DNA from: Lophium mytilinum
Taxonomy: Eukaryota
Assembly: GCA_010093605.1 (NCBI GenBank)
Contig: MU004199.1
Span: 1,240,001-1,304,000, forward strand
Direction: 5' to 3'
Length of the DNA: 64,000 nucleotides
Shown: one piece after another, positions 3,401 to 62,054 of the stretch
Layout of the letters: every line of letters begins with the position of its first letter
Position numbering within the stretch: the stretch's first letter is position 1
Notes under the pieces: generated by a model
The model's input: only the letters and a program-made list of their open reading frames with translations
The model's database searches: none
What the model was told of the DNA's origin: nothing
Position numbers and translations under genes: made by a program

Positions 3401-6400
3401 CGTGGCCTGAGGCTGTCGCCGACTGATTCGCCCCAGACGTCCCAGCAGCACTTCATCGCATCTTTGGGGGCGCTCACGAGCCAGTGCAACAGCCGTTTCG
3501 AGGACAGGCTGCTGGTGGCGGCCGGAGAAATCTGGAGACGGTGGTCGCTGGGCTAAGCCTGAAAGTCATATCTTTGCCCTTAAGATGCAGGGAGGGGGCC
3601 GTTGCGCAACCCGACGACGCAGCCTCCCGTCGCTCGCTAAACCTCCTCGCCCAGGGGCCAAGCAGCGTCCAGCACTCCTCTCCGCTGCCGCTCCAGGAAG
3701 CCTCGAATCTTCGTCGGAAGCGCAGCCCATCGAAATCGGCCTCAGGATTCCTCCGCGAGCTAGCCGCAATGCTGCTGTCTCAGTCCATCACCATCCACCG
3801 CCAACCTCCAATCTCTCGCCCTCTATCACCACCCGATCCGTGCATGCGTCGCACCGAGCCAGCTGCTTGGCTGCAAGAGCCAATTGGTCACGCTGATGGC
3901 GCTGACGTCTGGAGCGCGGCCTCCAGTGCCTCCAGTGCCTCCAACGCCCTCCAACGCCCTCCAACGCCCTCACTAGCGGTCCGGCCCGCACAGGATAGGC
4001 CACCAGCCTCGACTGAACCCTCATTCCTCGATCTCTGCAAGTGGCGAGCAGCCATTGCTCCAGCCTGTCCCGACAATCAGGTCTTTGTCTCGGGCTGTCC
4101 GACGTTATCGTGGAGACCCACTCCGCTTCACCTCCGTCACTTCTCAACTACGGGTCAGAATATCGTGGGGCTATCTAGTTCCAAGTGTCGGTTTCTGTCT
4201 TTGCTCGCATTCTTCTGAATCTTGGTCGAAGCAGACCCTGGAGAATCTCTTCTGATGTCCCGTCTCCACCTGACCCCATCGTCCGATCATGTCAAGTCCT
4301 CCGACATCAACGACGTCAACGTCGATCGTCTCTCATTCGACATGGCAACGCTACGTCTCTGAAAGCACAGTGGCGCCTGTCAGCTGGCAGCGCTCAATTC
4401 TGGCGTGACTCCTGCAGATTGTGGAGCCCGGTCGTCAGGGGCAGTGCGATTTAGCGTCCAAACAGACTAATGGGCGACACTTATGAACTATACGACTGCC
4501 AGCTATTGCAGATAGTGCTCAGGTTCCTGGCTAGTTGCAGTCCTAAGCCTCAACCCGAGCACTTGTCGCCCTAGGACTCGCACAGCGGATCTCGTGCAAC
4601 TGGGCACCCCACAATAGAGTTTGTGCGTGCCCGGTTGGATGGCGAAGCTGTCGGCGCCTTGTCAACCTCCTCAGCCACCTGGCGGCCGGGAGGATATGCT
4701 TCCGGGCTCTGCAATATCGTCGTCTCGTGAGCCCGTGCAGGGGCAGTGACGCGGCCGCTGTTCTGTCGACGAAGGCATGCTGCTTACCTAGCGGCGTCAG
4801 AGGATGGTGAGAGAGCCAGTCAAGCGTGGGGACATGGATGCGTCAAGTCTTTGTCGCCCGCTGCCGCTCGCCGGCCGACGCTTCACAACGCTTCCCCAGC
4901 CAAAATCCGGTAGCGAGGAAGTAGAGTCGCACCGTCCGGCCGATGGCAGGCTTCCCATTCCAGAAAGTGCTTTGACACGAGGTGCCTTAGGGTTACACTC
5001 CGCTTTTCTCGGCCAGTGCGTGGTTCTGCGCGGTCTCAACAACTCCAGCCGTTGAAACGTTTGCTAGTGCCATCTCTCACCCTCCGCTTGAACTTGCTGA
5101 CTTGTGTTCCTTAGTCAGCGGCCCCTTGTTCTACTCCATGTTTTACTCCATGTTTTCCTCCAGTGTCCAGCGCGCGGCTTGGGAACGAGGGGCCAGCGGT
5201 TCCGTGGTCGGCGGCAACGGCCCAACGTCGCCGCACAAACCTCGAGGCTCAGGGCAGCGCGTGCTCCTGTTTCCTGCAAACATGGCGGGCTGGTCGCGGC
5301 CGGCAGCCATCCGAGAGCGAATGCGACGCTCTCGGTGCGGTAGAACGTGCAGCAGCCAGGCCCCTCGGATCAGGCCACGAACCGCTGGCCCGTGCCCGCG
5401 CCGCTGCTGCAAACCGTCGACGACTTGATGGCTCATTTGGCTGTCTGCTGCGATGCCATTCCACGACCGGGTTGGGGGCCAGAGAACGAGGTGTCTGTGG
5501 ACTCTGTGGACAGCCGCCTTGTGACCACCCGCCATGTGATTGCCGCCAGTTTCGGCCCATCTTCTCTCCGACTCGACCATCCTCCTGCTCCTTCGGGCGC
5601 CCGCTCATCCCTCCGCCATCGCCATGTCTATCCCCGAAGTCCATCCCCTCGAACCCAATCTCCAGCGTGGATGTGACGCCTCCCGCATGGCCTGCACCGC
5701 GTCAGGAGAAAACGCCACAGTGCCGCAGCAGCTGCATCCTCTATTGATCTGACACCCCTTATCGTCAGCCGCTCACCCTCCGCACGTCAAGTCTTGCCGC
5801 GAGCCAGGTAGTATCTCTCTTCCACCCTAGTCCCTTCACCTCTAGTCTGCCCCTTTAGGTCCAGCTTCCGCTTCCATTGTGAATGACTTGCAGTCTGGTG
5901 AGCGGGGTCTCCCTGCCTGCCGACAATGTGATATCTTGCCTAGGGCTGGAGTCGGCATCGATGCCGCCCCTGGATACGGCATTTATTTGTGTGAGGTCGC
6001 TGGCATCCAGGGTGCCGAAAGAGGAAGATCGGCCAAAGAGCATCGCTTGATGTCATGCCGCTACTTGGTTGGGCTCCTGTCGATGCTGAATCTTGCCATT
6101 GCGAGGGCCCCTGAGTTTTTCATCTCCATCTCGAATCTTCAGCTCCTCCGGTTGTTGGGGGCTGATTGTAGTCTGGAGACGGAGCGCTGGAGTATGGTCC
6201 CGTTGCCAGGCAGGCTCACGTGCTTTTTCGCATAGGCTAAGGTAGGGTTTTTAGTCTCGAAGAGCATCGTATCGTGCTCCTGTAGTCTTCAAGTCCATAA
6301 TTAGAGGTCCAAGAACAATATACATCTATCACATGTTTTACATATTCATGTTTCGCGTTCGAATAGCTCCTAGACTCTCATGACTAGATTTGAGCAAAAG

Positions 6401-8192
6401 CGACCTCACCACACTAACCATAGTTACCTCGAAGGCTAACGATGCGTTTATCGAAGGGCAAAGACCACGAGGATCTTGACATGTATGCACACACAAGCAG
6501 ATCTACGACACACTTTGGCATCCTACAACTCTTGCTTCGCCTGCGAATAGAGTCATCGTGGAGCAGCTTGTCATCATTATGGTGGTCAGCGCAAGCGGTT
6601 CTCTTCAGATTTCAGACCCATCCGTGATTCCCGAACTCCTACCTAGTTGTGACTTTGCAGTTGCCTCAGCTGCTCCGCAATATAAAAGCCGTTAGGCCTT
6701 CGACTGAAAGCAAGAACAGATGTATACAAGCTACTCTGCGCATGCAAAATAGCTAGATCATCTGCTTCCCCGGCTACATGTGCCCACTAGGTGTCTCGAC
6801 CTTCTTGAAACAACCAACAGCACTCATGAACCAAGATTCCACGTCTAGGGCCCCTCTAAGCCTCTCCAAAATCCACCAAAAGCCTAAGTCATGCTAAAAT
6901 CCACCGTCTCTAGATACTACCGCTGGTATGCCCCTTCTGCAGCTTCTCCGCAACCTCCCTCCTACTTGAACGCAGCCCCAGCTTACAGCGTCTAGTCAAA
7001 CTTCCCTTTCACAGAAATTCTCCACACTCCGAGTACCAGCCTTTAGTATCTATGCGAAACAGGACCAGACTTCAGCCCTCATCCGATCCCTCGTACGGGC
7101 TTCTCGATCCTTCTACAGGCTCGACGCACTCCGTCGTGGCTTTGGATGGACCTCTGGGATAGTGGATATGTGGGATGAACACCACGCTATTGGCCGATGG
7201 GCCTCTGGATGAAGGAGCTCGAGTAAAGGGTCGGAGTACTAAAGTACGACGGCTCAGAACACTGGTTCGGCGATGGACATTCTGTGGTGCTCGGCGGGAT
7301 TCGAGATCGTTGTGAGTGCGCGGATGGGGTATAACGGTGGATAAGGGGTGATTTTGGTCCGGCATCGAAAGTTGGAAGGGGCGAGCTTGCGAAGGTTCAT
7401 TTTAAGAGGGGTTACTGAAGACAAGAGCAGCCACTACGGTGGGACGTGATCAAATGGACTTTTTGTTCGTTTCGACGACGTGGTAGATTTGGCATATTGA
7501 CGAGGTGATACGGTAAAACAAATGGAGGTTGAGTATGTTTAGACACTTGCTTCGTATGTACTAGTTCTATGTTATTCATTCTCGTGAGCAAGTCCGTGAA
7601 ACATTGAAGCAATCTTCATCTCCGCATTCCTCACCTCCCCTATCTTGTAGCCGTCGAAGCTCGTGGGGTGAAGAGTCTCAAGGCCTCGCCTCAGTCTCTT
7701 CTTCTCGTTCTTGGAAAATGCTAGAAGGACGTCTAAAAGTGTATATACCTATGTGCCATTCTATGCACCTATCCCCCAATACTTGAACTTTTGCACTCAA
7801 CCCATTTGGTGTGTGTACCATCGTCTCAACAAGCTATCTCAAACGAGTCATCATCCATAAGCAACGACTGACTGTCCCTGGTAGGGACCGTTTGGCCTGC
7901 GAGAGCCCTCTCGCGCCTGCTGGAGGACCCAAGGTGGCCTAACCGATGAACAACACCTCCCGAGGCAAGGAGTTGTGTATAGGGGGAAACTGAAGTCGAT
8001 ATGCAAACTCCGTTGGACAGGAAGTGGTACTCCAGCATTGCTTGAGGTTGATGCTCGAGGGGTTTGGAGTACTCCCGAAGTTGCTGCTTTGCGATCTTAA
8101 TGATGCGTTAGAGGATCTTACCCGGTGCGGAGCATGTGTTCATAACGCGAGCGAGAGTATAGGTATTTACCGCTATCGTTAGGAAAATCCTA

Positions 8193-8214
8193 ATATATAT
8201 ATATATATATATAT
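8193..8214. repeat. (AT)11 microsatellite
   Basis: Directly visible. Confidence 0.9.
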
Positions 8215-9611
8215 GAAGTACGAACTATTGAAGGCGGACTAAAAGCTTACCCTGCTATCCCCTAATCGTACCTGGGGCTTCAAAGAGATGTTGGAGCACT
8301 TCCCAATTGATGCGTGAGCATTTGGTGAGCATCCGCATAAATCTGTCCAAGCACTTTATCCAATTCATCAATCTCCAGGAACCGAGCTTTTTCTATTCTC
8401 AATCATAGACGCCTACAGTTACCCTCTGCAAGACCCTCGCGTTTTCTATGTGCGTCCTCTTCCGAGGTCTGTAAAGGAACAGCCTCCGTGGGTGTACGCC
8501 GAGCGGTGGTGGCCATTTATTCTACACCAGCGGGCTGAAGTATTGGGCAAACGACTCTTCGTACGGCGGCGTTGGGGATAGAGGTTGGGGTGGGTTGCAG
8601 CTGAGAAGGTAGTAGGGTCTACGAAGAGGGAGACCGCGCTGTGAGTATATTAGCAGTTAGTGACATCACCTCGAATACCGCTCATACAACGTGGAAGACC
8701 GGTGGAGGGATGCCTTCAGCACGCTAATCCCACGGCGCGACTTGAGCCGTGTGCAGCGTATGTGCGTGCAAGTAAGGATCACTTCAGCATTCAAGAAGGC
8801 CGAGTGGGAAAGCAAGCGGCCGCCGAGACGTCATCTTTGCTGGTCTTTGGCGTGGTGGAGATGGAGGCGAGGTTGGAAGAATGAGGGTTCTTTCTGGTCG
8901 CCATGCTGGCCTCAGTGGCCCGCAAGCTCCGAGTAGGATCGTCTCACTCTCTGTGTTTTGGAATTCCACGCACCCTTGTAATCCCTTTCGTGTGCCATTG
9001 TTTCGAGGGTTCATTCTGCATAGATGCTCCGCTGGTCTCCTAACGGATGGAAAGTGGCGGCGCGGGATTGTCCTCCGCCTCCGTATCTACTCCAACACAT
9101 TTCAACAGCCTAAAACGGCTTCTCTTATAGTGTCCCGGCAGCCTGGGTCGCGTATCGATGGCTTTGTTGGACCGAAAGTGAGAAGAGAGGTCGTGAGGCG
9201 TTCGCGGCCAAAGCTTAGTCAGTAGTGATGCAACTGGGGATGATGCTACGGCTGACTCGGAGTAGTCGTTGAAGGATAGATTCGACGGGCAAAGGATCTG
9301 ACGGGAACGTGTGGCAGCCTTCGCCTCCTTAGGGCCGACAAGCGCAAAGATGCTTGTTCGTGATTTGCGTGAGGTGTTGCGAGTTTGTCGCTGGCAGACT
9401 TGAGATGTACTATGGATAAAACTGTTTTGCCAGTGGCTACATGTTGTAGGCGATCAACTGGGATGAGGAGATGGGTCCCATGGCAACGCAGAGGGACGAG
9501 GTTGATAAAAGACGCTATCGAGCTAGAACTAAAACAATAAAACGGCGAGAGCACTGCTAGGCGGACGCGTTTGCTCGAACTACAAAAATAAACCTACAGA
9601 AAGATTAAAAG

Positions 9612-9845
9612 AGCAAAAGACCACCTTCCCGATGGAAGGTGTAGAAACCCAACGAGGGTTTACTCCGTAGCCCGGTTCACATGCTCACGTGTCAATCGAC
9701 GCTTATTGCATGTACCGTAATGGCTAATTCTCGAGGAACCGTCGGGAATCGAACCCAGGGGTCCTCGAGTTGGCGAAGGCGTCGGCCGGTTCGGTTGGAG
9801 GACTCGACTCGGAGGGGGAGGAGAACCAACTGAGCTATCCTAGTG
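9612..9845 (-). ncRNA. Candidate structured RNA polymerase III transcript with tRNA-type internal promoter (not a tRNA)
   Basis: Minus strand has A box TAGCTCAGTTGG (9837-9826), B box GGTTCGATTCC (9755-9745), four hairpins and T-tracts (9618-9615, 9610-9607, 9588-9584). Acceptor and D stems do not form. Confidence 0.6.
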
Positions 9846-12824
9846 GTTAGTAATTGGAAGACTGGCAAAATAACTCAAAATACATACCCTCATTCAACGC
9901 GCCCCAGGTGTAAACATTCAAGTGAGCGGCCCGAGCACGCACGTGGGCAAAGAAGTCCACTTGACAATGCGCACTCACCTCACCCGTACAGTATACATCC
10001 TGGCTAACCAAATTCATTCCCGTCTCACCTTTCGCAGAGCGCAAGATATGTATGGTGCGCTTGGTTTAATACTCAATCGAGGAGCCGAAGAGTAACTGTC
10101 TCTGATTAGAGGAACGGCGGTCCCCCGAGCAGGTGGGCTTTGAGGCGCTAGCTGTCCATATCCGCACGGCCACCTCACCTGCCCACCGTTCCTACAGATA
10201 CGCATAATAGGGTCAGTCAACCATATTCGGAGTCTTTGCTGTCCAGAAGTAATATGTATTGGTCGGAACGGGGAAGATGCTGCGGGTTCTTAGCAGTCGA
10301 AGAAAACAAAATCAGCTCGCGTTCCATCTTAGCGACAAGGGAACAAAATACAAGTTAGCATCTCTTGAATCGAACCATAGCTCGTCCCAGGAACAGGATC
10401 TTCGGGTTGGGAACCTAAAAGAATTTCTTGCTGCAGACGAGTTAGCAACAGCTTCTTAGCCGTGGGACGAGGTACAGTAATCTGCCACATTGCTTGAAGA
10501 AACAATGAGACCACTTACCCTTTGAAATGCTCAACGTCGGAAAGGAAATGCTACGCTATCATAATGAAAAGGCTGCGTGTAGGCCTTAGGATGACTTTTT
10601 GCTACCAAGGAATATCTTCTCACGGCAAGGCGGAAAATACAGAGATTCAGACAAACTTGTTCTGGTTGAAGGTGGAAGATCTGACTTGGATGAGTGATTA
10701 GGAACGAGATTGATGGAAGCACAAGCAATGAGTAGCAAGACGGCATTGGTTGAGGTTACTCTAAGAGCATCATGCGCACGAGCTAGAGAGACATGATGTA
10801 AGAAATGCTACCTAAAACGAGCTCTATCTTCCAGAGTTGAACAGATGCTATCGCAAGAGGTAGATGCTTATCGAGTCTCGAGTCGGACTTGAACGGTCTC
10901 ACCCGCAAGTATTTGGGATTTTCGAACTCTTCTACGCTATTTCACCGAGGGTACGAGGAGGAGGCAATTACGGACCGGAAATCGAGATAGCCTGGTATGA
11001 TGGCAAACGTTTCAGGGGCCGTCCAGGATGGAGATATAGCCATGGGGTTTCTCCAAGACGTCTGCGGCGAATGAAGTGAGCCAAGCCGATCGACGTGGCG
11101 TAATGGCCGGCTAGATCAAGCTACTTTAAAACGTGATCTCGAAAGCTTGAATGCTGGGCTTGGGAAGTCACAATGATGAAACTTGATTCTGATGGAGAAC
11201 AAATACCCACAAGTCGTACTAGCCTTTCTCGCCACCTACAGCATCTCCATTCAATCTTTATCACCTTCGCTGAAACATGGCACTGAATCCCAGCCCGCAA
11301 GCCGGAAGCCCTCTTTCGTACCCCTTCGATCGACGACATCCATCTAGTAAACAATACAAGGGATGGTGTATACCTGCCGCCCTTCTTAACCTCATCGAAC
11401 TCTCTGCAGCGCGTCCCTTGCGTACAAACCAGGCTAACCCGACCACATCCCGCTTCTCCCAGTAGGCAAGCACGCGCTGTCAGCACGCATTACTCATCTG
11501 GGTAAAAGCACCCGGTCTCCATGCAGTGCAGTCCGTTGACACGAAGCCAACGACGTTCTACCGAAGTGGTGCCCCTCGCCCAGCTCGCTTGCAAAGAAAG
11601 GCGCCTTTCCCCATCGCCCCTAGCTCGCCCTCGCACACCTCACTCCCACCGTTCCTCCGACATTCACCGTTTGCCTCCTTTGCCTTGCGCCCCCTCTCCC
11701 GTCCCCAGGAGCCGCAGGAGCCGCAAAATCCCTCGCTGCTATCCCCACAGCCCCCTCCAATCACGCCCCGCCAGACACCCAATTGCCGCTTGGCATGCAT
11801 GCCATTGCCGACTAGATAGAAACCCGCATCGACCGCCCCGACGCGTCTGCTGGCCAGAACGAGGGACAGTGACGAGCTCGTGCAAAGAACCTCGGACACG
11901 TTTGCCAGCTGCGTGCTTGCTTGGCTTGCAGACCAGCAGCCCCTGGTCTGACGTCTGTTGTTGCTGGCCCTTGCACCTATCCTTGGAGCTGCAGCTATGG
12001 TATGCATGACCCTTTCGACGAAGCAGCAGCAGCTCCACCAGCAGCAGGTTTCATGCACGATGGGATGGGATGGGATGGGCATGGGGCGGGCGGCAGGTGG
12101 AAGGAGCCGAACGCGACGCGCCGCGAGTGCCTCACCGATGAGAGCGTGTGTCGACGAGACCGACCGGCAAAGGGCGCGGTGCGTAGGTGTGGATTACGTG
12201 GCAGAGCAAGCCAGGTCGCGTGGGGATAGCTTGTAGCACGCCTGACGAACATGCACGATGCAGAGAGCACTGCAAAGGAGTCCAGGTATGCCCAGGTCAG
12301 GTCGAGCCAGCTAGCCAATTACACACTGCCATTCACCATTGAGATACCACGATTCTCTTCTCGTAAAATGTCGGGCCATTCATAAGATGCTGTTCTGATT
12401 CCGTAGCTTTTGATTTGAGGGCTTTGAAAAGGTAGTGCCGTCGTCTCATCGTACAGTAGTGCCCAATCTGCCAAACAAATTGGGATGTCCCTAGAGGTCT
12501 CCCGGAGAATGACTAACTCCCGTACGCGAAAAACGCCGTTATGGGTTTCCCTTGCCGATTCGAATGAAAGATGAAAGGCCCCCGTGATATCCTGTAACAG
12601 GAGGAATCCGAGGGCGAAGAGAAACACCTACTCCAACTCCACCGATGAAAAGAAGAATAAAGAGAGCATTCCACTAGAAGGAAGTTGTGAAAGAGAAAGA
12701 GAGAGAGAGTCCTCAATTTCCCTATTCCAACCCAAGCCATAAACCCAAAATCACTCGCTCCCTGAGCTCCAAAGCGCCCTGCGTGAAGAGGTCCAACACT
12801 GAGATAGTCCAAGGGCCAGCATTA

Positions 12825-13313
12825 TTAGCTGCTGACTTGACCGTAGGCGCGCTGGTAGTTGGTGGTAGCGGGCGTCTGACCATAGAATTGGAGGGCGCAT
12901 TCGGCGGCGTCTTCGCGGGCTTGCTCGACGTAGTTGCCGTCGTACCAGTAGCGGGCCGGGAACTGCTTTTCACCGACTACAACGACGCTAGACCATGCGG
13001 TGCGGCCTCCTGTGAGTCAGGTTAGCAGGTGGTGAGGGCACATTGATGATAGCAAGAAAGGCTAATCTGTGCTGGAAGTGAGGACCGATTATGGGGCTAG
13101 GGTTGATGAAGAAACCCGGAAGGGGATTGGATATTCTCCGAGACTCGAGAAGCTTACCTCGACGATCTGAAACGTCTTGCCATCTCGGCTGCTCGATCTG
13201 GGCAGCGTTACAATGATCTGGACATGAATCAGTCAGACCTGATCCTTGACGAAGGTGGAGATCTGTCACCAACCCTTCAACCTGTCTTGCCAGAAAGTGG
13301 GTCTCGCGGCCAT
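12825..13313 (-). CDS. Small (94 aa) conserved fungal protein with dsRBD-like fold; exons 13313-13274, 13217-13158, 13009-12825
   Basis: Spliced by hand (GTTGGT/CAG and GTAAGC/CAG, GCTAAC branch) to MAARPTFWQDRLKDHCNAAQIEQPRWQDVSDRRGGRTAWSSVVVVGEKQFPARYWYDGNYVEQAREDAAECALQFYGQTPATTNYQRAYGQVSS*. The SDRRGGRTAWSS...ARYWYDG...AREDAAE.AL pattern matches a small Pezizomycotina protein family, recognised from memory. Confidence 0.85.
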
Positions 13314-14788
13314 TGTGATGATGATCCAAGTAGCGACGCTTTTAGTGCTCAAGAACAAAGGCCCCAAGAGAGTGTGGCTGCAACCAAAGAAAGCAGAGCA
13401 GGACAGTCTGAATGCAAAAGCGCTTGTATAGGAAGATTGAAAAGTGCCTAGCTGGAAGAGAAGCCCTGCACTCGAAATCTGCTGGACTACTTATACAACT
13501 AACCCGCACGTCACCCGTAAGGCTAGACGAAACGACATGTTGCACCCAGGCGCACGCTGCCGGAGTCATCAGACGGTGAGCAGGGAACACATACGCAGGT
13601 CTCACGGAAACGACCTCTGTGTTGTCGTAGGGCACTGGGGACCAGAGGCCCACGGATCGTTCGCATGGCTCCAAGGCCCAATGCAATGGATGGGGGTGGG
13701 CCGGGCCGTTTCCAGCTCCTGCACTGTTCAGTTGGCATCTTCTGGCGTCCGTCGATGATGACCTCGTTGCACTCAAGGCGGGCCAATGGCAGCCAGCAAC
13801 GAGAGGGGGGCCCTGCCCGCAGGCAAATTGCATGAATCGAAGCCGGCGGCGTGCTGGCCGATGCCTTCCCCATCGAGGCCCTCGTGGTTGAACGCGATTA
13901 GCATGGCGGCTTAAGAAGAAAAGAGAGGGGGGTGGAGAGGGACCGGGAATAGTCGAAGCATTGCACGCTGGCAGGTTAGCCAACTCACTGTGCATGAAGC
14001 TGGGTGCACGCCTTTCTACTCGACGTGTCTTAACCCTAACGCCAGATTGATCGAGCTTTTCCGAAGCACGATAAGTCGATCTCCTGCGAGAATTACTCTG
14101 CCTGCAAGCCCACTGACCCTAGCAGGGAGCGTGCACAAATCCTGACGCAGCGGGCGGCCGGGCAGTAGCCGTTTGCTCGGCGTCGGGACGGGGGCCGTGG
14201 TATGGTGATGCTTGCCGCCAATACCTTTGAGCTGAGGGAGGGCCCGCTGTGACAGCACCGGGTACCTACTTATGCTTCTCTGTTTGACATGTTGCTCAGC
14301 ATGCGGATGCCGGCAGCGTGGCGTGAGGTCTGGCGCTGGAAATGGTTAAGATGGCACAACTATCCGAAACCTGCCCAGAGCGTTCGGAGTTCTTGAGCTG
14401 TTTCATCAGAGCCAAATGCGGACGTCATAACGGCAGACGAAGTCGAGAAGAGTAAATATGTTCATCATTCGTTTCAGTTCATATGTATACGAAGTGAAAG
14501 CCGTCCTCCTTTTGTCGTAGAGCCATTAACAATATGTGATATCCCAGGTCGAAGCAAACACTCCATTTCCGATTAATCCTAAACGCCTCCGCTCCGTTGC
14601 TGTCGTGTCGACGCCCCACATATTAGATAGATTGACGAAAATGCCACGGCAAGCCGCAGCTGACGTTCCAACGAAATGAGCAGGATGCCCAGTCGCGCGA
14701 ACGGAAATATGTACGAGAATCGAATGCAGAGTTCCGCCCAGCGGGTCTGAAGTTGAGAATGCAGGTCAGTTGGTCGGCTCTCTAAGCC

Positions 14789-21738: not shown

Positions 21739-23489
21739 CTAGTGAGAAGCTGCTGCACTCAGAAAGTCCTGGCGTTCCTTAGTGTCTTTAGCCTCAGCTT
21801 CGAGCCAATTGGAGATGATGGCAGCCTTGCGCTCTTCGCTTCTCGGTTCGAACACCATCTCGAATGGCAGCGGCTTCGTGATAACCTCGGAGGACGTCTT
21901 CAACGAGATGGGAATATTGGCGCCGGTAACCGGGTGCGTCTTGTGTTTGGCATTGAACGCCCATAGGAGCCCTCCGCAGAGAACGATAAGCGCATCTTGA
22001 GTGAGGGTTTGCCCGAGGCAAGTCCGAATGCCCCAACCAAAAGAGGACATTCCCTTGATCGTCGGGAATTCAGTAAGAGGCTCCTTGTAGGTTGGCCACT
22101 CCGGCTCCAGGAAGCGCTCCGGGTGGTAATTTTCAGCATCTGGGTACTTGGTCTCGTTGCGCATCATAGCCCTGAAGCAATGTTAGAGGATTCTGGAAGG
22201 GCCGTTGGTGTAACTTACCAGTCAAGTGGAAGAACTCGCGTTCCCTTCGAAATGAAGCCGCCGCGGTAGTAGTCGTCAGCTTCAAGCTCGTGCGCAACAC
22301 CTGTCTGAAGTTAGTATACACTCCGTGCTCATACAAAGTTACTTACCGGCTGGCACAGGCGATCTCCATCGCATAGTCTCCTTGATACAGGCGCGAAGGA
22401 CCGGAAGATTACGATAGTCGCTGAGAGTTGGTGGCCGACCTTCACATTCGCGGTCAATCTCCTCCTGGCACTTGGCCATCCACTCCGGATGAGTGATCAT
22501 TGCCGTCAAGAAGTATTGGGCGGGTCCGCCGACCGTATACACGCCCACCAACGCGAGCATGCCGATAGCAGAATGGGCCTCGAAGTCGCCCTGGAGGGGG
22601 GACTTCTCCCCGAGATCCAGATACTGTCTGGCCCAGCACGGTCGCAACTGTCCCGCTTGCCATTTCTCTCTTGCGCCGTTCAACAGATCCATCCAGAAGG
22701 TCTGTTGTATGCCTCGTCGGACATATTCGCTTCGCTTCCAGGGGTTGAGGAGGAGAGGCAAGCGCCAGAGCGGTGTCACGAGATTTGTAAGTGGGCCATT
22801 CGGCGACATCTGGCGAAGTAGATTCCATGCACTCAACCGCATCTCAGGGCTGGGGCTGGGATCATCGTAGGCAAGCGTGCACATAATCTTGGAATTCGCG
22901 TTCTCGATGTGGAAGCTGAAATTGTCCGGGTCGCCAAGGAGAATGAAAAGCAGGTGCTTGTATTCGAAGTCCATGATTCCCTTGTATTGGGTGGCAGCAG
23001 CCTGCATCAAGAACGAGTGGGCCCATTTGCGCTGGCGAGCCCAGGCTTCTGCAGCTGACATTAGCACAGGTTTCGAGACTTCGCTCTGGGGAACCACTTA
23101 CCGTTCCTACCCATGAGCGGCAGATACGATAGCATACCGTGGTTGCTCTTCGAGTCGATGAGAGATGGCACGATAGGCCTGTCTGAGTATTTCTTCGACC
23201 GCTTCACGAAGAGCTCTTCTGCGATGGACTCATCCGAGATGACGACGAAGTTCCATCCGATCATTTGCGTCTTGTAGATGCCACCATACTTGTCGGCCCA
23301 TTCTTTGAGCTTGAGCCAGAAACACTCAGGTGGCAGGTCGTGAATACGGCCGATGTAGGGAACCAGACCCGGGCCCGGGAACCCCCATGGATTGCTTGTC
23401 TTGTTCCAACGACGGTATGCTTCGACAGTAGTCACGAGTGCAAAGGCACAGAGAGCCAAGGCCACTACTACGATGCTCAGGGACATCAT
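21739..23489 (-). CDS. Cytochrome P450 monooxygenase; exons 23489-23102, 23048-22347, 22300-22219, 22171-21739
   Basis: N-terminal TM anchor, PGP hinge, ExxR (KETMRW), PERF (YHPERF) and heme motif FGWGIRTCLG. Three GTAAGT...CAG introns restore the frame. Confidence 0.95.
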
Positions 23490-44089: not shown

Positions 44090-45577
44090 ATGAGTATGGC
44101 GGTGCTGGCGCGGGCTCTTCGCGCAATCCCCTTTGGCCGGACTCCAGATGGGTTCGTTCGACACACCCGGCCGTCACTCAGAGCGTCCCTCCGCCCGGTT
44201 CGAGTTCTCCCAAAGCGTCGCCATGCCTCCACCACATCCGAACTCGCCACCGATGGCCGGTCTGTTCTCACGCGCACCAAAAATGTGCTGTACGGGACCT
44301 CAATTGCCTTCTTCATAGGCTTCGGATACCTTTACATAACCGACACTAGAGCCAGTATTCACGAATGGCTTGTTGTTCCGGCATTGCGGGCGCTATATTC
44401 CGACGGTGAACAGGCACATCACGCTGGAACTGCCGCATTGAAGGGCCTGTACCAGTTTGGGCTGCACCCTAGGGAGCGGGGGAATCCTGACGCTGCGGGT
44501 GATCTGAGGATTGAAATATTTGGACAGGTCGTGGACAACCCCATAGGCACATCAGCGGGAATTGATAAAAATGCCGAAGTACCGTCACCACTTCTCGCGC
44601 TTGGTCCTGGCATCGTCGAAATTGGTGGAGTCACTCCACTACCGCAGCCGGGTAATCCAAAGCCCAGAGTCTTCAGGGTACCCTCGCAAAACGCCATGGT
44701 CAACCGATATGGGTTCAATTCCGAAGGCGCGGAGCACGTTGCTATGACACTACGCCAAAGAGTCAGAGAGTTCGCCCAGCGTGTTGGTCTTGGTATCGAC
44801 GCAGAGGCCGAACGAATGGTACTAGACGGTGAGGCTGGTGTGCCTCCAGGGTCTTTGGTGCCGGGAAGGCTCCTCGCTGTCCAAGTTACCAAGAACAAGT
44901 CGACTCCGGATAGTGACATCGAAGCCGTCAAAAGAGACTTTGCGTTTGGGATAGCACACCTTGGAAAGTACTCGGACATCATTGTAGTCAACGTGTCGAG
45001 TCCAAACACACCCGGTCTGCGCGCTCTGCAAAATGTTGCGCCGTTGACGCATATTCTAACCACATGCGTCAAGGCTGCGAGCGAAGTTGATAGGAAGACA
45101 AAGCCTGCCGTGCTTGTCAAAGTCAGTCCCGACGAAGACTCGGAGGAGCAAGTGTCCGGTATCTGCGAAGCCATATGGCAATCGGGCGTTGACGGAGTCA
45201 TCGTCGGCAACACGACAAAAAGGCGTCCAGATCCAATTCCAGAAGGATACAGCCTCCCGCCAACGGAAGCAGCCATACTCCAGGAGCAGGGAGGATACTC
45301 CGGGCCACAATTATTTCCAAGAACGCTGGAGTTGGTCAAGCGATATCGCAAGATGCTAGACGAAGGCCCCAAGTCTAGCGACGCCGAATCTCCCACGGAA
45401 TCTCTGAGACGCAAAACTATATTTGCCACAGGAGGCATCACAAATGGAAGTCAAGCGCTGCAGATACTTGAGGCTGGTGCAAGCGTTGCGATGGTTTACA
45501 CAGCGATGATATATTCTGGTGCTGGAACAATAAGCAGGATTAAAGCCGAGATGAGAGATGAGATTCGAGAGAAATAA
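44090..45577 (+). CDS. pyrE: Dihydroorotate dehydrogenase (quinone), class 2, mitochondrial; 495 aa, intronless
   Basis: Arg-rich presequence plus TM segment; NPIGTSAGIDKN, PQPGNPKPRVFR, NRYGFNS, VNVSSPNTPGLR, VKVSPD, NTT and GGYSG motifs. Confidence 0.97.
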   Translation: MSMAVLARALRAIPFGRTPDGFVRHTRPSLRASLRPVRVLPKRRHASTTSELATDGRSVLTRTKNVLYGTSIAFFIGFGYLYITDTRASIHEWLVVPALRALYSDGEQAHHAGTAALKGLYQFGLHPRERGNPDAAGDLRIEIFGQVVDNPIGTSAGIDKNAEVPSPLLALGPGIVEIGGVTPLPQPGNPKPRVFRVPSQNAMVNRYGFNSEGAEHVAMTLRQRVREFAQRVGLGIDAEAERMVLDGEAGVPPGSLVPGRLLAVQVTKNKSTPDSDIEAVKRDFAFGIAHLGKYSDIIVVNVSSPNTPGLRALQNVAPLTHILTTCVKAASEVDRKTKPAVLVKVSPDEDSEEQVSGICEAIWQSGVDGVIVGNTTKRRPDPIPEGYSLPPTEAAILQEQGGYSGPQLFPRTLELVKRYRKMLDEGPKSSDAESPTESLRRKTIFATGGITNGSQALQILEAGASVAMVYTAMIYSGAGTISRIKAEMRDEIREK

Positions 45578-45869: not shown

Positions 45870-46970
45870 CTTAAAGGTATAGAGTCGATGTAAGAATAGA
45901 TAGATAGATAGATAGGAATTGTATTCTTTAAGTTCTATTCTATATTAATAGTAATAGAGTATATATATAGTATTAAACACATTATAAAATATTTCTCTAA
46001 TATTCTTATAATATTATCTAATATTTATTATATTATATTTAAATGCTTATAGTTTTATCCTATTTAAAGGCTTTTAAGCCTATTATATATAATAATATAC
46101 TATTATAAACCTTATAAACTCTCTTAAGCGTTATATACTTATTTTATATATTCTTTTTTAAATAGATAGAGAGATAGATAGATAGATAGATAGATAGATT
46201 AATAGATAGATAGATAGATAGCATTTTTTCTTCTATATATAGATAGATAGATAGATAGAATCTATAGATCTATATATTTATATAATAGAGTTATATCTAT
46301 ATATCTATATATCTATATATCTATATATCTATATATCTATATATCTATATATCTATATATCTATATATCTATTTAGTATCTAATCTTATATAGTCTACTA
46401 TTTTAGTAAACTACTTCCTACTAATAGTTTAGTAAATATATTAGCTATTTATTCCTTAGTATTAAGGTAGGCTAGCTTTATTAATCTATTTTAAATATTT
46501 TCTCTTATAGAATAATATTATATATCTATATATTTAGTTTTTAAGTAGTGTTTAGAATTATTAGCTAGTTCTATAGCTAATTAACTATCTATAAATAGAT
46601 AGAATTCTTCTATATTTCTAATATTAAGTTAGATTAATATATATATTAAGTATATATATTCTTTTATAGTTTCCTCTAAAGCTATATATTTAGCTTTACA
46701 ACTAGATAGTACTATAGATTTCTATAGTTTACTATTCTAGCTAATAGGAATTTTTCTATAGGAGAAGTAGTTGCTACTTATTAATTTTCCTTCTATTATA
46801 TTACCCCTATAATCTGTATTAGAATAGCCTAATAAATAAGGTGCAGGATTATTAGGAGAAAATCTAACACTTATTTCATGCTTAGGCTTATATAATAGAT
46901 ATTTCTAGATCCTTTTTAAAGCTTTAAAGTAAACAGGACTAGAATTAGATATAAATTAAGCGCATAGCTT
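45870..46970 (-). mobile_element. Ty1/Copia 3' remnant: end of RT, RNase H and 3' LTR (~45870-46097)
   Basis: De-RIP reading gives ISWNSKLQKS..LSSCEAEY..., KHIDIQYH..RE and ADIFTKPL. The LTR matches the 45659 and 58002 copies, with a purine tract before it on the minus strand. Confidence 0.88.
46293..46372. repeat. 8-bp tandem array (ATATCTAT)n next to (GATA)n tracts
   Basis: Directly visible. Confidence 0.85.
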
Positions 46971-49751
46971 AATATAAGACTTCCCCCTATTAGTATTATC
47001 TAGTAAAAAAGGGCACTTACCTATATCTAGAGTATATATATATCTATAGTATATATCTTTTAAGTATTAAGACTAGACTATTATAGGTTAGTACTATAAT
47101 ATAAGGCTAGTAGAAGTACTTATAGCTATAACTAGAAGGTGCTAAGCTAAGTATAGAAAGAGATAAAAAGAAGTCTAAGAAAATAGTAAGGAGTCCCTAT
47201 ATAGAATTATAAGGTATTATTACTATTATATAATTTATTATACTATAGAATTCTCTATATATAGTTAATATTTAGATATCTATATATAATATATAGATTT
47301 ACTAGTATAATACTATACTGCTATATATCTAGGGCAATTTAAGCTATATAGACCTCTTATATATATTTATAGCTTAGTTAGATTTCTTTATAGAATTAAT
47401 ATCTATTATTCTCTAAATTCTAATCTATATAATCTTAGAATATTATAATATTCTAGGCAATAATATCTTTAGCTCGCACTATTACTCGGGCCTTTCTAGC
47501 CCCCCTGCGCAGCAGGGGGGCCGCCAGCTTACTAGCTTCCTAGCTTACCAGCCATAAACGCTAAAAATAGTAAATACTATTAGGGCTTAATATATCTAGG
47601 GGTTTTAATTTCTAATAGTCTATTTATAGCGCGCATCTATTTTCTATATATAATTCTAATTGCCTCTTACTTCTTCTAAAGCTTTCTATTTACCTTTTCC
47701 CGTTATAGTTATACTTTAATTTCTTCCTTCTTAAGTATTAATTTACTCTTTTTAGCTACTATATTCTAAGCGGCGCCGGCCTATAGTAGGCCTATATTCT
47801 TAATTTACCTATATAGGTCTCTTTTAGAATCTAATTAAACCTAGCTAGTAGCTATATAGCTAGCTAATTATCTATATATAATATTACCTACTAAGACTAT
47901 ACCTATTATATATAACGTAACTCTATAGAGTGCAGGGGATAGAAAGGTAGATAATAGAAAGAAAGAAAGAGTTATAGAACTAGAAATAGATAGCTATAAT
48001 ATATTAAAGGCTTAGCCTCTAATACTTCTACTAATATATAATAGTTCTATACTAAGTATTTAAAACCTTATAATAATACTACTATATAACTACTAGCCGT
48101 CTATATATATAGTATATAATAATAGCTTATCTATAATAATACTCTAGCTTACCTTTATATACTTAAGTATCTACTCTTATCCTCTATTATTCTTCTAGGT
48201 ATTTAAAATTATATTACTAAAATACTTAAGTTTTTAGCTAGATATTAGTATTATAATATTATTTAAATCTTAGACTAGCGGCGTTTTATTTTAAATCCTC
48301 TATAGGTTAATTAGACTTAGGGGGGGTATAGAGTATTAATTAATAATAACTAATAGATACTAGGGTATAATTTCTACCTTCTTCTATTACTCTAGAATAG
48401 TTTCTTCTTTAAAGGTCTTTATTTAAGAGCCGTAAATAGTATTTAGAAGTTCTATTATTATTATTAAATTCTATTAAGCTAGTATAGCTTCTATTAGAAT
48501 CTATATAGCTATTCTATCTAGGCTAGTTATAAGAAGAAAACTATTTACTACTAAGTAGCTATTAGATAAAAACCCTATCTTCTATAGTATATTAAGCTAA
48601 GCGCCCTTTCTTATAGTATTATTTAGCTATTAGAAATATATAGTAGATCTATTAGGCCTACTATAAAATAAGCTATTATAATATATTCTTCTAGATTTAG
48701 ATTAAATTAATTAGAATCTAGGGCGGTTTACTAGTATAGAATTAGCGTAAGGGTATATATATAGTATAGATATATATATATTCTATCTTAAAGATAGGTT
48801 TAAAGAAAGAAATTAAGTATAGAGAGCCCTATAGATAAAAAGAATAGAAAAGCTAAAATAAAATAGAAAGGCTATATAATATATAGTAGTATAAGGCCTA
48901 TTAAATAGCTACTTATTAGATAGTAATATTATTCTATTCTATTTCTTATAGATATAGAAAGTATATAGTAGAAGTATATAGTAGAGTATATAACTTATAG
49001 TATACTATAGAAAGTATACTACTACTAGTAGCTAGTATAGTCTTCTATAGTATAGCTAGTAGTTATAAAAGGGCTAAAGGGCGGCTCTATAGTAGAGTAT
49101 ATAATATTTAAATAGTATATAGCTTTATAGATAGCTATTATAAAGTAGAGAGGCTACTAAGAAATAAAAGGGCTATAAAGAGTAGAAAGTATATAATAGA
49201 AAGTATAGTAGAAGAGATAGCTCTAGTATACTATAGAAAGTCTATAGCTATATATAGTAAGTATAAGCTTTTATAGTATAGCTAAAAGCTATAGTATAGC
49301 TAAGAGCTATAGCGTAGCTAAGAGTTATAGCCTAGCTAATAGAGATAGAGCTAAAAGATAGTAGATAGATAGTAGTAAATAGAGTATATAGATAGATATA
49401 GATTATATTATATACTATCTACTCTATAATAAGAGAATATAACCCCTCTTATATACTTTTTAGCCTAGCTAGAGAAAACTCTTATCTAAGGGCTTACCTT
49501 CTAGTAAAACCTTAAAAAACTAGGTATATAAAGTCTATCTTCTATATCTCTATACTAGTTTACTTCTTAAGCCTATATTATTTTTTCTTTTTATCTATTT
49601 ATAGATTAATATATATATCTATTCTTTTAAGCTATATAAATAGTATTAAGATAGGCTATATTTAATAGTTACTACTATTATATATTTTATCTTATAGCTA
49701 ATACTATTTTATAATATTTTATATTATTTCTTTTATAAGGCTAACTATATC

Positions 49752-51332
49752 TATTAGAGCTTAAATATATATAGAAAATAGGCTTATATTTAAGAGTAAT
49801 AAGAATATAAAGCTAGAAAGTATAGAGGTATAGAGGCGTAAGCTATAGTTATAGGCTACTTACCTAGCTTATACTAATATATCTCTATAGTGTAGGCTTA
49901 TATAATAGTATACTTAATATATAGCTATAATATATCTCCCCCCTCTAAAGAAGGCCCCTTTCTCTCCCCTTCTAGCTAGGCTTCTAGTTATAATAAACTA
50001 TAAACTAGAGAGTCCTCCCTTTTATTTATATAGGTCTAGTAGCCGTATATTATTATACTAGGTAAGATAGATAAGTTTAAATATATTTAAATTAATATTA
50101 AGTAGTAAGGCTATTAGGCGAGCTTATTACTTATAGCTAGAGCTAAATTAATAATTAGTATTATTTCTAATATATAGCTAAACTATATACTAATTTCTAG
50201 CGTAATTATATATACGCAGCTATATAGTAGCTATAAAACTAGCTATAATAGGGCTATATAGAGCTATATAGTATACTATATTTTCTTCTATTATTTTTAG
50301 AAGAGAATTATAGCTAAATTAGTATTATATATATAGGCGTAGGCGTATATATAGTATAGATATAGGTATAGTATAAGTATAGGCGTAGATAGGCGTTTAA
50401 TATAGAAATTAGATAAGAATTATTAAGAGGCTCTAGCTATAGATAGATATAGCCTATAGTACGGCCGTAGCTTTAAAAATAGTAGCTAGCTTATAGGCTA
50501 TTAATATTTAAATTTATAGAAATTTATATAGGGCGTTTAAATAAGTAATATATAGTATTATAGGTAGTTAGTTTTTAGATATAAAAGCTATAGCTTCTTT
50601 AATAGTAGGCTAATAGGTATAGTCTATTAAGAGAATTATAAGAATTATAAGGATTTTAATATTATAGATAATAAAAAGGGGCCTACTAGTAAGGCTAGTA
50701 ATGCAGGCGTAGTTATAAGATAATAATTTTTCTTATAGTTCTAACCTTAAGCTTTAATTTCTATATATACTATAATCTATTCTTCTACTATAATAAGCTA
50801 TACGCATGCAGTAGGTTCTTTCTTTCTCTAGCCCTTTCTAGCCTATTATAACTAAGCTTTATCTATCTTTATCTTTATTATAGGCTATAGTATAGTATAG
50901 ATAATAGTTATTTAGGCTTATATAGCGCGCTAAGGTAGTTAAATATATAAGGGACTCTATAGGCACCCTATAGGTTCTACTTAGTACTACTTATAGTAAT
51001 AAATATAAGAATAAGGTATAATAAGATTACTAAAGTATACTAGCTTAGTTAGTTGCTTATTATAGATATTATAGTGGGGTAATTATAGTAGTAAGGTAAT
51101 TAAGAGGTAGCTCTATAAGCTATAAAAATTAAGGTAAAGCCTATTTACTTCTAGCCTCTAGAAGAAGCTTTATATTATATTAGGGCTTAAATATATATAG
51201 AAAATAGGCTTATATTTAAGAGTAATAAAAATATAAAGCTAAAGAGTATAGAAATATAAAGGCGTAAGCTATAGTTATAGGCTGCTTATTTAGCTTAGGC
51301 TAATATATCTCTATAAATATATAGCTATAATA
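49752..51332 (-). mobile_element. Small non-autonomous LTR element (TRIM-like), 1.58 kb
   Basis: Direct repeats at 49752-49932 and 51178-51332, TSD ATATC on both sides (49747-51, 51333-37), and a polypurine tract (AGAGGGGGGAGA on minus) abutting the left LTR. Confidence 0.8.
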
Positions 51333-52999
51333 ATATCTTATAGAAGTTACTATCTATATACCTCTAGCTAAATAGTATACTTTAGTATTTCTCTTCTACT
51401 AACTAAAATAGAGTATTTTTCTTTATTCTCCCTCTTATTAATACTATTCTCTAGTATATTTAGCTACTACTATTCTCTATACTTATACTCTACCCTATAT
51501 ATTATAGTATTAGTAGCTAGATTAGTTAGGTATTATTACCTTATAGTACTTTATTAGGGTGCATCTACTAGAAATTATCTAGTTTATTATTCTTTCTCTC
51601 TTTATCTATCTAGTAGATAGCTCTATTACTCTAACTATACTAGTAGTAACTATAATAATCTCTCTAAGAAGCTTTAGATATTCTCCGCGCACTAGTAGGC
51701 GCCTATAGATAATAGTAGATAGCTATAAGTACTATACTATTTAAAGCCCTTCTTTTAACTACTATCTATAGTACTATTCTCTAAGTAAAGCTATAAGTAC
51801 TATACTATTTAAGGCTCTCTACTTAGCTACTAGTAACTATTATAACGCTATAGGCACTATATATACTATTAGTAGAAGTTAATAGAAAAAAGAGTAAAAA
51901 CTCTATATTACTACTCTAGAGGTATTCTATTTAGCTTCTAGGGGTTCTATATTATAATAAATAATATAAGAGCCTATTTTCTATATAGATAGATACTAGT
52001 TAAATAGTTTTTATATTTATTTTAATAGTTATTTCTCTATTTTAGTAATATAGTTTATTATAGTTATTCTCTAGCTACTAAACTTTTAAATAGCTATATT
52101 ACTATTACTAACTCTATTATTACCTTAAGTATCTACTTTATAGTAATAAGACTATAGGTTTATAGTACTACCTTATATAGGCTACTTATAAAGCTTATAG
52201 TATTTTAAAAGTTCTATTTTATTAAAATCTATATAGCTCTTAGTATATACTTTTATTATAGCTTAGCTAAGCTAGTACTTATATAGCTAGAATATACTAA
52301 TATCTAGTAGCTAGTATAGGTGCGTTATATATAGTAGTATTAGAAATAGAAGAATATTATAAATATTATAATATTTAATAATCTATTAAGTACTATAGAT
52401 AGTATAGCTATCTAAAAAAAGTATTCTATAGGCACTTTTCTATTACTTAGCCGTCTATTAATTAAATAACTAGATTTATTAGAATACTAGCTAGTTATTT
52501 ATATAGGCTATTTTATTAGCTTTAAGTATATATTTAGATTAAATAGTTAATTAAGTAAACTAGTATATCTACTTAACCTTCTCTTTAAGTACTATATTAA
52601 CTAAGATTATATAAATACTAGGCTTAGCAGCACTACTAAGTAAGGAAGGCGGTAGTAGTATAATTATATTAAATCGCAGCTAAATCTCTTTATAGCTACT
52701 ATAAGCACTAATATCCTTACTATTAAAACGTTGTATTTTTCTATTATATATATAATAAAAGTTATAAAGCTTATAATTTTCTATTAATTACGCTTAAAAC
52801 TACTAATTTTAGAGTTATTTTAAGTTATAAAGCCTTAGTATTAAATTTACTTTTAGAGGAATATACTACTAGTATATAGATATATAAATAATAATAAACC
52901 CCTTTTCTATTTCTTATAACTTAACTCTACTAATTTTCTTCTAATTTACTTAATTTTTACTATATTTTCTTACCGCTATACCTCTTAAAGAGCTTAATT

Positions 53000-54990
53000 C
53001 TAATACTATTACTAAAAGGTCTTATATCTATCTATTTAAGTTAGAAACTCCTTTAAAAGAGCCTAAAAGAAAGTTAATTAAGAACTATTCTATTAAATAA
53101 AATTAGCCTATTAAAAAGGCTAGAAGGTTCTTTAGTATATAGAAAAAGCTAGAAATTCTTACCTAGTAGTACTACTACTATATAGAAGTATAGCCTAGTA
53201 AGTAGAGCTATATTAAGCTAGGCTTACTTCTATAGTAGCTAGAAGCTAACTACTATTCTTCTATAGGTAATAAGGTAGCTACTTTTTAAAAGGTTTCTCT
53301 TAGTACTATAGGCTTCTAGAAGAAATAAATAGAGGCCCTTTCTAATACTCTATATAATAGCTATATAGTAGCTAGATCTATCTAGCTTAGTAAATAGAAT
53401 AATCTAGAATAATAACTATATACTAGATTTATTAAAAAAAGAAAAAGAAAGCTATAAGTTTAAGTATATTAGTTTTAATAGTATTCTAAGGCTATATTTA
53501 AGAAGCTATATCTAGCCCTTATAGTAGCTAATTAGTATATCTAGATCTTCTCTTAGGGGTAGTTTTAAGGGTTTCTATTATACTCTAGAATCTCTTTTAG
53601 AGTAGTAACTAAGAAGGTATTAAAACCCCCCTAATTACTATAAATAGAAGTACTTTCTTAGTTGCTTTTTAACTAGAAAATTACTTAACTAATTTATATA
53701 CTAGCTACCTTCTAGAGCACTATAATAGACTAGCTACTAGCCTAAATTAATACCGCTAATTACTAGATATATAGGTAATAGTTTTATCCTTTAAGAATTA
53801 TAAATATAGATAAAACTTCTATTTCTTTTAAGTAGGTTAATTACTATACTTATAACTTTATAGGCTCTATTAAGGTTACCTCTAAAGTAATTAAGTTAGG
53901 TAATAATAAGTACTAAGCTACCCTAATCCTCTATATATATATAGATAGAGTAGCTAGATATAACTCTATACTTATATTTAAGGGGTTATTAAAAGAGGGT
54001 AGAACTATACTAAAAAATAAGTAAGATTTATATATAAAAGGGGTGGAAGTATATATTAATAAGACCGCCTATAATAATAAGGCGCTATTTTATAATTAGA
54101 TAAAGAGAGTATATATTCTAGCTAATTAGAATACTAATAAGTAGCTGCTAGAGTCTCTTCTTTTACTTAATACTATAGTATTCTATAAGACTAAGGCTAT
54201 TAAGAATCTCTTTATAGAAAATTAGGTATTTATATTAATAATTTCTGGAGGCTATATAGGCTATCTATAGCCCCTTAATATAGCTATTAATAAGCCCTTT
54301 AAGAAGTAGATTATAAAGAAAGTTAATAATAGAATTAATAAGAAAATTAAGGTAGAAGAGAATACTAAGAATAATATTCTATATAATAAGAGAATTCTTA
54401 CTACTATAGTAGTTATAGAGGCATAGAAGAAGCTTATAGCTAGACCTAAGCTTATAATTAAGGCCTTTAAGAATATAGACCTCTTACTACTAGCTAATAG
54501 TAGTAAAGACTATAAAATTTATATTAAAACATTTATCTATAGAGAATTTAACCTTTCTAGATAGAGAAATATACTAGAGGTACCTCTATATATTAAATAG
54601 AAGCTTAATACTAATAATAATAAGCTTAAATTTATAGATAGAGATAATATACTATATAATTAGAGCTAATATAAGAGCGCTATAAAGACTACTCTATTAA
54701 GACTATATAAAAAGAGAAATCTACCTAGTATAGCTATTAGAAAGTAATAGCTTATTAAGAGGCTTCTAGCCTATAATATAAAAAGAGTAGAAGAATTAGA
54801 TTTAGGCGGCTATTTAAATACTCTAAATAACTCTATTAATTTAACTATTACGTCTTATAATAGCTTTCTATCTTCTAGTATTATAGCTAGTAGCTTAAGT
54901 AATAACTCTATTATCTTAGAATCTAGATATAATACTTTTTAGAGGAGTTATAGTAGTTTAGAATTATAGAGTAGATATACTAAGTAAATA
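53000..54990 (+). pseudogene. RIP-destroyed pogo transposase (CENP-B-type HTH + DDE_1), approximate ends
   Basis: De-RIP reading gives RR.FS..KKLEIL, FS.GWF.GF..R and GGCTGYLQPLD.AINKPFKK (~54245-54305). Confidence 0.8.
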
Positions 54991-55224
54991 GAGGACGCCT
55001 AAAAGAGGCTAGAGTTATAAGAGGGAGAAGGGCTAATTTTTTATTCTTTTTACTATAAATATAGTACTAATCTTAATCTATATACTATAGATTTCCTACC
55101 TAGAGTTATAGCTAATTAATTATAATATATTCTATCTTATTCTATCTAAAAGGGCGTTCTAATCTATCTAATATTAGCTATTCTATATCCTCTAGTAGTA
55201 GCTACTAAGAGTATATTATAAGGA

Positions 55225-62050: not shown

Positions 62051-62054
62051 ATTA

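Follow-up and report, generated by a model that had tools for sequence, protein, structure and literature searches.

The locus and its surroundings

The window, a stretch of 64,000 nucleotides from contig MU004199.1 of Lophium mytilinum, carries on its minus strand a repeat unit of about 290 bp (~9890-9600), which is larger than the interval 9612-9845 that the original prediction had marked out. The 5800-14200 region around this element is without recognisable genes, and a search for Pfam families in its 12 open reading frames (ORFs; 91-258 codons) returned none. Elsewhere in the window, an ORF piece at 22342-23097 (minus strand) has a cytochrome P450 domain (PF00067, E 2e-15) and is presumably one exon of a larger gene, and an uninterrupted ORF of 493 codons at 44096-45574 (plus strand) encodes a mitochondrial-type dihydroorotate dehydrogenase that clusters in the Atlas with PF01180 from Ascomycota at a score of 0.98. 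The dihydroorotate dehydrogenase ORF directly adjoins an AT-rich block of 18 kb (46001-64000; GC 0.21-0.28, overall 0.25) with a strong RIP-type bias. Outside this block, the rest of the window has a TpA/ApT of 0.69 and a (CpA+TpG)/(ApC+GpT) of 1.25.

Evidence on copies of the element comes from contigs of public sequencing runs that match the stretch. Run X1 is a DNA run, probably of the source sample. Run X3 is probably an RNA run of the same species, its RNA label in the run table being only guessed; it is taken as RNA because the unique flanks 9000-9593 and 10242-10600 are uncovered and because it contains a GT-AG junction. A library protein, P0002, supplied a further match. The features at the locus are the following, all on the minus strand, which is the sense strand of the element:

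9600..9890, repeat copy, approximate extent, from depth by bin, contig breaks, loose ends and the P0002 match
9888..10192, unique upstream exon joined to the element, from an X3 contig with 0 differences over 305 nt; single-copy in X1
9835..9887, spliceosomal intron of 53 nt, GTATGT...TACTAAC (9853-9847)...TAG, sequence GTATGTATTTTGAGTTATTTTGCCAGTCTTCCAATTACTAACCACTAGGATAG, from the X3 junction
9826..9837, A box TAGCTCAGTTGG, from the pattern scan and shuffles; 14 columns the same as in a tRNA
9745..9755, B box GGTTCGATTCC, from the pattern scan and shuffles; the canonical GGTTCGAATCC occurs in another genomic copy
9730..9769, T-arm-like hairpin (UGGG/CCCG around the B-box loop) in an 8-bp stem CUCGAGGA/UCCUCGAG (9769-9762/9737-9730), from the MFE fold
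9622..9726, tRNA-unrelated body with three predicted hairpins, from the MFE fold; the most abundant part of the repeat (depth peak, bins 9594-9701)
9726-9668, composite hairpin, from the MFE fold
9661-9645, 6-bp stem 9661-9656/9650-9645, from the MFE fold
9641-9622, 8-bp stem 9641-9634/9629-9622, from the MFE fold
9607..9618, two T4 runs (9618-9615 and 9610-9607), candidate Pol III terminators inside the repeat unit, from a scan of the sense strand

A tRNA-like core that is not a tRNA

Read along the minus strand, the sequence is ...CCAATTACTAACCACTAGGA-TAGCTCAGTTGG-(70 nt)-GGTTCGATTCC-..., with the A box at 9837-9826 and the B box at 9755-9745. The original prediction had described such a pair of boxes about 70 nt apart, and the pair is borne out: the joint pattern TAGCTCAGTTGG-N55-85-GGTTCGAWTCC has one match in the 64-kb window and none in 100 dinucleotide-preserving shuffles. 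Each box alone is at chance level in the window, with 2 matches to a loose A-box consensus against 1.28 expected, and 4 matches to the B box with at most 1 mismatch against 1.43 expected. A near-B box with 1 mismatch, GGTTCGATTCA, lies on the same strand about 600 nt upstream (10366-10376) and is probably a chance occurrence.

The A box, which we take to correspond to tRNA positions 8-19 in the usual numbering, opens a run of 14 consecutive columns, TAGCTCAGTTGGTT, all 14 of which are identical to a genuine bacterial tRNA (L001, from the metagenome scan). Farther downstream, GAGGACCCCTGGGTTCGATTCC is laid out like a variable loop followed by a T arm, and in another copy, seen in a contig with a loose end at 9736, the B box is the canonical GGTTCGAATCC and the T stem is better. 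The place of the 3′ strand of the D stem and of the anticodon arm is occupied by about 48 nt of unrelated, C-rich sequence. Because a tRNA-like A box and T-arm layout enclose unrelated sequence, the core of the element is, as judged from its sequence, tRNA-derived yet not a tRNA. The two boxes likewise make up the signature of a type-2 Pol III promoter at the sequence level.

The absence of a cloverleaf, also part of the original prediction, holds as well. ARAGORN at default stringency, with or without introns, reported no tRNA gene at the element, and the Rfam tRNA model has no match there at E<=10, which together rule out a tRNA gene. A relaxed ARAGORN run produced more than 200 calls across the window, 2 of them overlapping the element, and was discarded as noise. 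The prediction's failure to place the RNA in any known class is reproduced by the Rfam covariance models, which give 0 matches at gathering score in the whole window, so that no known family (U6, SRP, RNase P/MRP, 5S, snoRNAs or others) accounts for the element. With the threshold relaxed to E<=10 on 9300-10200, three chance-level matches appear (E 3.3-6.8), far under gathering score.

Predicted fold and termination signals

The MFE fold of 9845-9605 (minus strand) has a free energy of -83.7 kcal/mol, which is only moderately better than shuffled sequences (z -2.3), and the opposite strand folds at least as well (z -3.2). All four hairpins that had been proposed from the letters alone reappear in this fold at the positions proposed for them, and the T-tracts that were said to follow them are the T4 runs at 9618-9615 and 9610-9607. 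Between the A box and 9618 the sense strand contains no T4 run.

Variation between copies bears on whether this fold is maintained. Five of the 13 substitution sites between copies fall in predicted stems, where the change keeps a G-U pair in 2 cases and breaks the pair in 3, and no compensatory double change occurs among the 13 sites. Since three of the five stem variants break pairs and none is compensated, the copy variation lends no support to selection on RNA structure.

One copy of a dispersed repeat

The original prediction had regarded the element as low-copy and not a SINE, a view that the public runs do not support. In X1 the unique flanks have a depth of 148-158, and the bins across 9594-9863 sum to 712-2535, or 5-17 times the flanks. 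By our own rough arithmetic the excess over baseline, from 3′ to 5′, amounts to ~12, 16, 9, 8, 3.7 and 0.9 copy equivalents; summed contig depth is not the same as copy number, and figures of 10-16 copies are rough. X1 has 35 records that match the stretch, 19 of them only partly on it, and by likeness they divide into 18 at >=99%, 4 at 95-99%, 9 at 90-95% and 4 below 90%. The X1 contigs with the window's unique flanks break off inside the element, at 9629 and 9806, and long X1 contigs (7036 and 4068 nt) terminate in copies that have diverged by 3-4 letters and have other flanks. Loose ends at 9600/9604 vary from contig to contig. Besides the window locus, at least 3 distinct genomic contexts are present in X1, and X3 adds 14 matching records, among which contigs of 1985, 1110 and 950 nt carry flanks unlike those of the window. 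One piece of the element is also present in each of two air-metagenome runs.

The element is thus one copy of a multi-copy repeat dispersed in this ascomycete genome, and the low-copy reading fails, with the exact copy number left rough by summed depth. Dispersed copies with TSDs had been named in the original prediction as the finding that would overturn it, and of that pair the dispersed copies are there, with the T-rich TTATTTT as an unconvincing, sole candidate for a TSD. The exact window sequence of 9663-9830 is single-copy at the k-mer level (records 5 and 7, depth 162-169). Within the window no second copy was found, either by blastn at word size 7 or by a RIP-tolerant purine/pyrimidine scan of 50-mers with <=5 mismatches that included the 18-kb RIP block. 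The one locus that a metagenome scan with a pattern of B box and body brought up is a genuine bacterial tRNA, a chance match; scans of prokaryote genomes returned 0, scans of viral contigs returned 0 plus one phage tRNA-Leu, and none of these hits is a relative.

A further copy is visible in P0002, which was found with the element's 59-residue frame (E 9e-20) in a search of 1.84 billion representative proteins. By tblastn, its residues 63-138 correspond to window positions 9833-9600 (60/79 identical, E 3e-30) and the alignment passes through the window's stop codon; the remainder of the protein has no match to the window. The indels of P0002 (3 nt and 6 nt) agree with indels in the run-contig copies, and its Atlas model is unfolded (pTM 0.21), which argues that the element is non-coding. 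P0002 is a spurious ORF over another copy of the element. In the window copy no frame is open across the whole length, and a coding reading is rejected on the grounds that there is no start codon, that the frames are closed or differ between copies, and that P0002 is unfolded. A second protein, P0003 (E 2.5e-4), was rejected as a relative, its match being confined to the translated B-box region and its sequence a tandem repeat. This predicted protein of 585 aa has about six tandem units of 97 aa and is probably a translated tandem tRNA-like repeat from another organism.

Ends and internal organization of the repeat

The 3′ edge of the repeat is at 9600-9604. No homology beyond 9600 appears in the listed run contigs, where the 3′ flanks are all different; in four other copies the sequence downstream is T-rich as well. 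The 5′ edge is less sharply defined, the match of other copies ending at ~9797, ~9834, 9855 or 9890. Some copies are homologous as far as 9890, a point that precedes the A box by 53 nt and the expected Pol III start by ~35 nt. The 40-nt module 9890-9851 is also joined to different downstream sequence (X3 loose ends 9851, 9855 and 9890), and since this module occurs with another downstream sequence as well, the family looks like a mosaic.

Several classes of mobile element were considered from the termini. Terminal inverted repeats are absent (at most 11/30 positions match over 16 combinations of candidate ends), which argues against a MITE or other DNA transposon derivative. Helitron-like and solo-LTR ends were rejected by eye, as no CTRR follows the hairpin and TG...CA termini are missing. 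Near plausible ends a single direct repeat turned up, the low-complexity TTATTTT (9873 and 9591), which lies in T-rich DNA where the termini are uncertain. An A-rich or simple-repeat tail is absent at 9600-9620, the sense 3′ end being T-rich. Compared with what is expected of a SINE, the unit is short and non-coding (~290 bp, in a range of about 100-600 bp) and its copies are dispersed with different flanks.

Base composition and RIP

Retention of CpA/TpG sites had been put forward in the original prediction as an argument against a SINE. The observation stands in part: (CpA+TpG)/(ApC+GpT) is 0.70 in the element, compared with 1.11-1.21 in the 1-kb flanks and 0.16 in the 46-64 kb block, and TpA/ApT is 1.07, compared with 0.84-0.88 and 1.6, respectively. 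With only 291 nt the indices of the element are noisy, and its slightly RIP-like values may be noise. The substitutions between copies show no excess of transitions. RIP in N. crassa is reported to need duplications of more than ~80% identity and more than 400 bp (PMC2621366). A 290-bp repeat is expected to escape RIP because its length is under this threshold of ~400 bp, so retained CpA/TpG is no argument against a repeat, and the conclusion that the prediction drew from it is invalid.

Splicing into the A box

An X3 contig of 334 nt (depth 4) agrees at every position with 9888-10192 and continues directly at 9834, so that 53 nt are missing from it. The missing stretch is bounded by CT..AC when read on the plus strand and by GT..AG on the minus strand. 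As an intron it is typical of fungi in length, with a canonical donor and with a perfect TACTAAC branch point lying 12-13 nt from the acceptor. Splicing divides the A box after its third base, TAG/CTCAGTTGG. About 235 nt of the element stay exonic after splicing, and in the spliced RNA no frame looks coding. At this locus, a sense copy of the element sits in a weakly expressed Pol II transcript and is spliced into its A box. Upstream of the spliced exon, an intron-like stretch of 88 nt (GTAAGT...GCTAAC...CAG, 10431-10518, minus strand) was noted by eye, where X3 has no cover.

The homology of P0002 starts at 9833, within ~5 nt of the acceptor. The acceptor may also be used at other copies, or the P0002 copy may be truncated there by chance. 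The X3 splice (9835/9834) and the start of the P0002 homology (9833) are two independent hints of a junction that would be expected of a portable tRNA-derived cassette, in which a branch point in the leader and an acceptor in the A box capture transcripts and end them in the structured, T-rich 3′ part. By inserting downstream of promoters, such a cassette would give a RIP-proficient fungus new terminal exons and lncRNAs at several loci. We offer this as a speculation and think it unlikely to describe the family.

A tRNA-derived SINE-like family as the best explanation

We consider the element to be, with a probability of roughly 0.58, a ~290-bp copy of a dispersed tRNA-derived SINE-like family that has been exonised at this locus. 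In the mechanism that goes with it, TFIIIC would bind the internal A and B boxes with their spacing of 70 nt, and Pol III would start ~15-20 nt upstream of the A box and stop at the T4 runs 9618-9607, giving a structured RNA of ~235-240 nt. Spread by reverse transcription from the 3′ end would leave many 5′-truncated copies, and copies of ~290 bp, being under the RIP length, would stay GC-normal beside heavily RIP-mutated long repeats. The filing as a SINE follows from the internal promoter of Pol III type, the T4-free body, the terminal T4 runs, the 3′-rich and 5′-poor abundance and the precedent of fungal SINEs. The fall in excess depth from 3′ to 5′ is as in 5′-truncated retroposons and lends indirect support to retroposition.

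Membership among SINEs is incomplete, as the tail is missing, the candidate TSD is the low-complexity TTATTTT and transcription by Pol III is predicted from the promoter and terminator sequences. Speaking against a clean SINE are the lack of a convincing TSD and of a tail, the homology up to 9890 and the mosaic modules; a purely Pol III-derived copy should not reach 9890, because that position is ~35 nt beyond the expected start. No empty site, LINE partner or Pol III transcript came to light.

The same features could arise if the copy were a fragment or mosaic of a longer or different repeat, such as a LINE 3′ end or an unclassified element, that had captured a piece of tRNA and in which the boxes are idle. 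The varied 5′ limits (~9797, ~9834, 9855 and 9890) and the attachment of the 9890-9851 module elsewhere agree with such an origin, 3′-biased abundance fits 5′-truncated LINE copies too, and the want of a convincing TSD and an A-rich tail would be unsurprising. The boxes, however, are both exact, and the copy with a canonical B box and a better T stem suggests that they are maintained. In addition, the listed contigs show no homology past 9600 and have 3′ flanks that all differ, and the window's 18-kb RIP block has no RIP-tolerant match to the element. We regard the fragment origin as rather unlikely.

Dispersed copies with an internal promoter could also be a family of functional Pol III genes, comparable to dispersed 5S or tRNA genes, that makes a structured ~235-nt RNA of a new class with a tRNA-like T-arm minihelix and is not a parasite. 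The internal promoter, the uninterrupted 220-nt body and the T4 terminators in every 3′ end seen would be expected of such genes, as would the T-rich downstream flanks in four other copies, a stable fold (z -2.3) and the failure to find a TSD or a tail. Against this, the copies have diverged, some by more than 10%, and carry many indels (9 of the 35 records are at 90-95% and 4 below 90%), heads are several-fold rarer than bodies, 3/5 stem variants break pairs with none compensated, and the opposite strand folds at least as well. A family of working genes is accordingly quite improbable in our estimation.

The splice junction raises the question of an element that spreads as an intron or exon, either introner-like or as a portable terminal exon, to which the likeness to tRNA would be incidental. 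One of the 5′ boundaries of the repeat (9890) precedes the donor GTATGT by 3 nt, and the repeat itself contains both a perfect TACTAAC and the acceptor. Removal of the intron is seen in the X3 contig, and the P0002 homology begins within ~5 nt of the acceptor. Fungal introner-like elements are reported to be multi-copy and long, with stable structures predicted for them, and their repeated unit is the intron (PMC3609843). At this locus only 53 nt are spliced out and 235 nt, most of the repeat, stay exonic. One diverged copy seems by eye to have GTACAT at the donor (X3 loose end 9855), excision of the whole unit is unseen in X3, which has no RNA cover at 9000-9593, and there is no recognisable host gene (0 Pfam families in the 12 neighbouring ORFs). 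An introner-like element in the strict sense is rejected, since the intron is confined to 9887-9835 (53 nt) and the repeat runs on to 9600, and we consider the broader form very improbable.

Least credible, and in our view close to dismissed, is the original prediction's own proposal of a new class of Pol III ncRNA encoded by a unique or low-copy gene, or else of a milRNA precursor or an insulator bound by TFIIIC: the boxes, hairpins and T-tracts are present, no Rfam family matches and 9663-9830 is single-copy at the k-mer level, but the run contigs and P0002 reveal a multi-copy dispersed family in the same genome and the RIP argument is void for a 290-bp repeat.

Significance of a short repeat beside a RIP block

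A family with intact CpA/TpG beside an 18-kb RIP block would show how sub-threshold repeats survive in RIP-proficient genomes. For annotation, its copies should be masked as repeats, lest they be entered as new ncRNA genes or taken for exons of spurious proteins like P0002. Less ordinary is the use of an A box as a splice acceptor in a real transcript; if the same happens at other copies, the family would offer, on a small scale, a natural model of how exons arise from a Pol III-type element. A full-text search of a literature library with four of its 16-20-mers gave no printed match, and the family may be unnamed so far. Elements of this type are ordinary, few have been described in the group, and the curious detail of this one is the A-box splice acceptor.

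Comparison with known systems

Genuine nuclear tRNA genes resemble the element in the A box, in the sequence of the B box and T arm, in 14/14 columns and in the downstream T-tracts. Unlike them, the element is without acceptor, D or anticodon stems and contains ~48 nt of unrelated insert.

Fungal SINEs provide the closest precedent that was cited in filing the family. Few fungi have described SINEs (PMC5063351). The tRNA-related AfuSINE2 elements of Aspergillus fumigatus measure 140-493 bp, are low in copy number and have heads without a cloverleaf, and in one of them GGTTCGATTCC is present as an additional B′ box (PMC5063351). The same paper gives 11 copies for nrs1, and lists MgSINE, Foxy and nrs1 as fungal SINEs too. 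AfuSINE2 and the others are like the element in being short and non-coding, with A and B boxes in a tRNA-related 5′ part, an unrelated body and a low to moderate copy number, going by these descriptions (PMC5063351). Compared by description with these SINEs, the element differs in that its boxes are exact and not degenerate and lie 70 nt apart (PMC5063351). It differs further in that no convincing TSD and no A/T-rich or trinucleotide tail was found, and in that ~50 nt upstream of the A box are common to some copies.

Fungal introner-like elements are similar in being multi-copy, structured and tied to a canonical spliced intron, with one boundary of the repeat next to the donor. In contrast to those elements, whose repeated unit is the intron (PMC3609843), four fifths of the unit described here is exonic after splicing.

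Exonised Alu SINEs offer a parallel for the fate of the copy at this locus, in that a SINE within a Pol II transcript supplies a splice site and part of it becomes an exon. Alu exonisation in primates mostly uses antisense copies, whereas here the element lies in sense orientation and the acceptor is in the A box.
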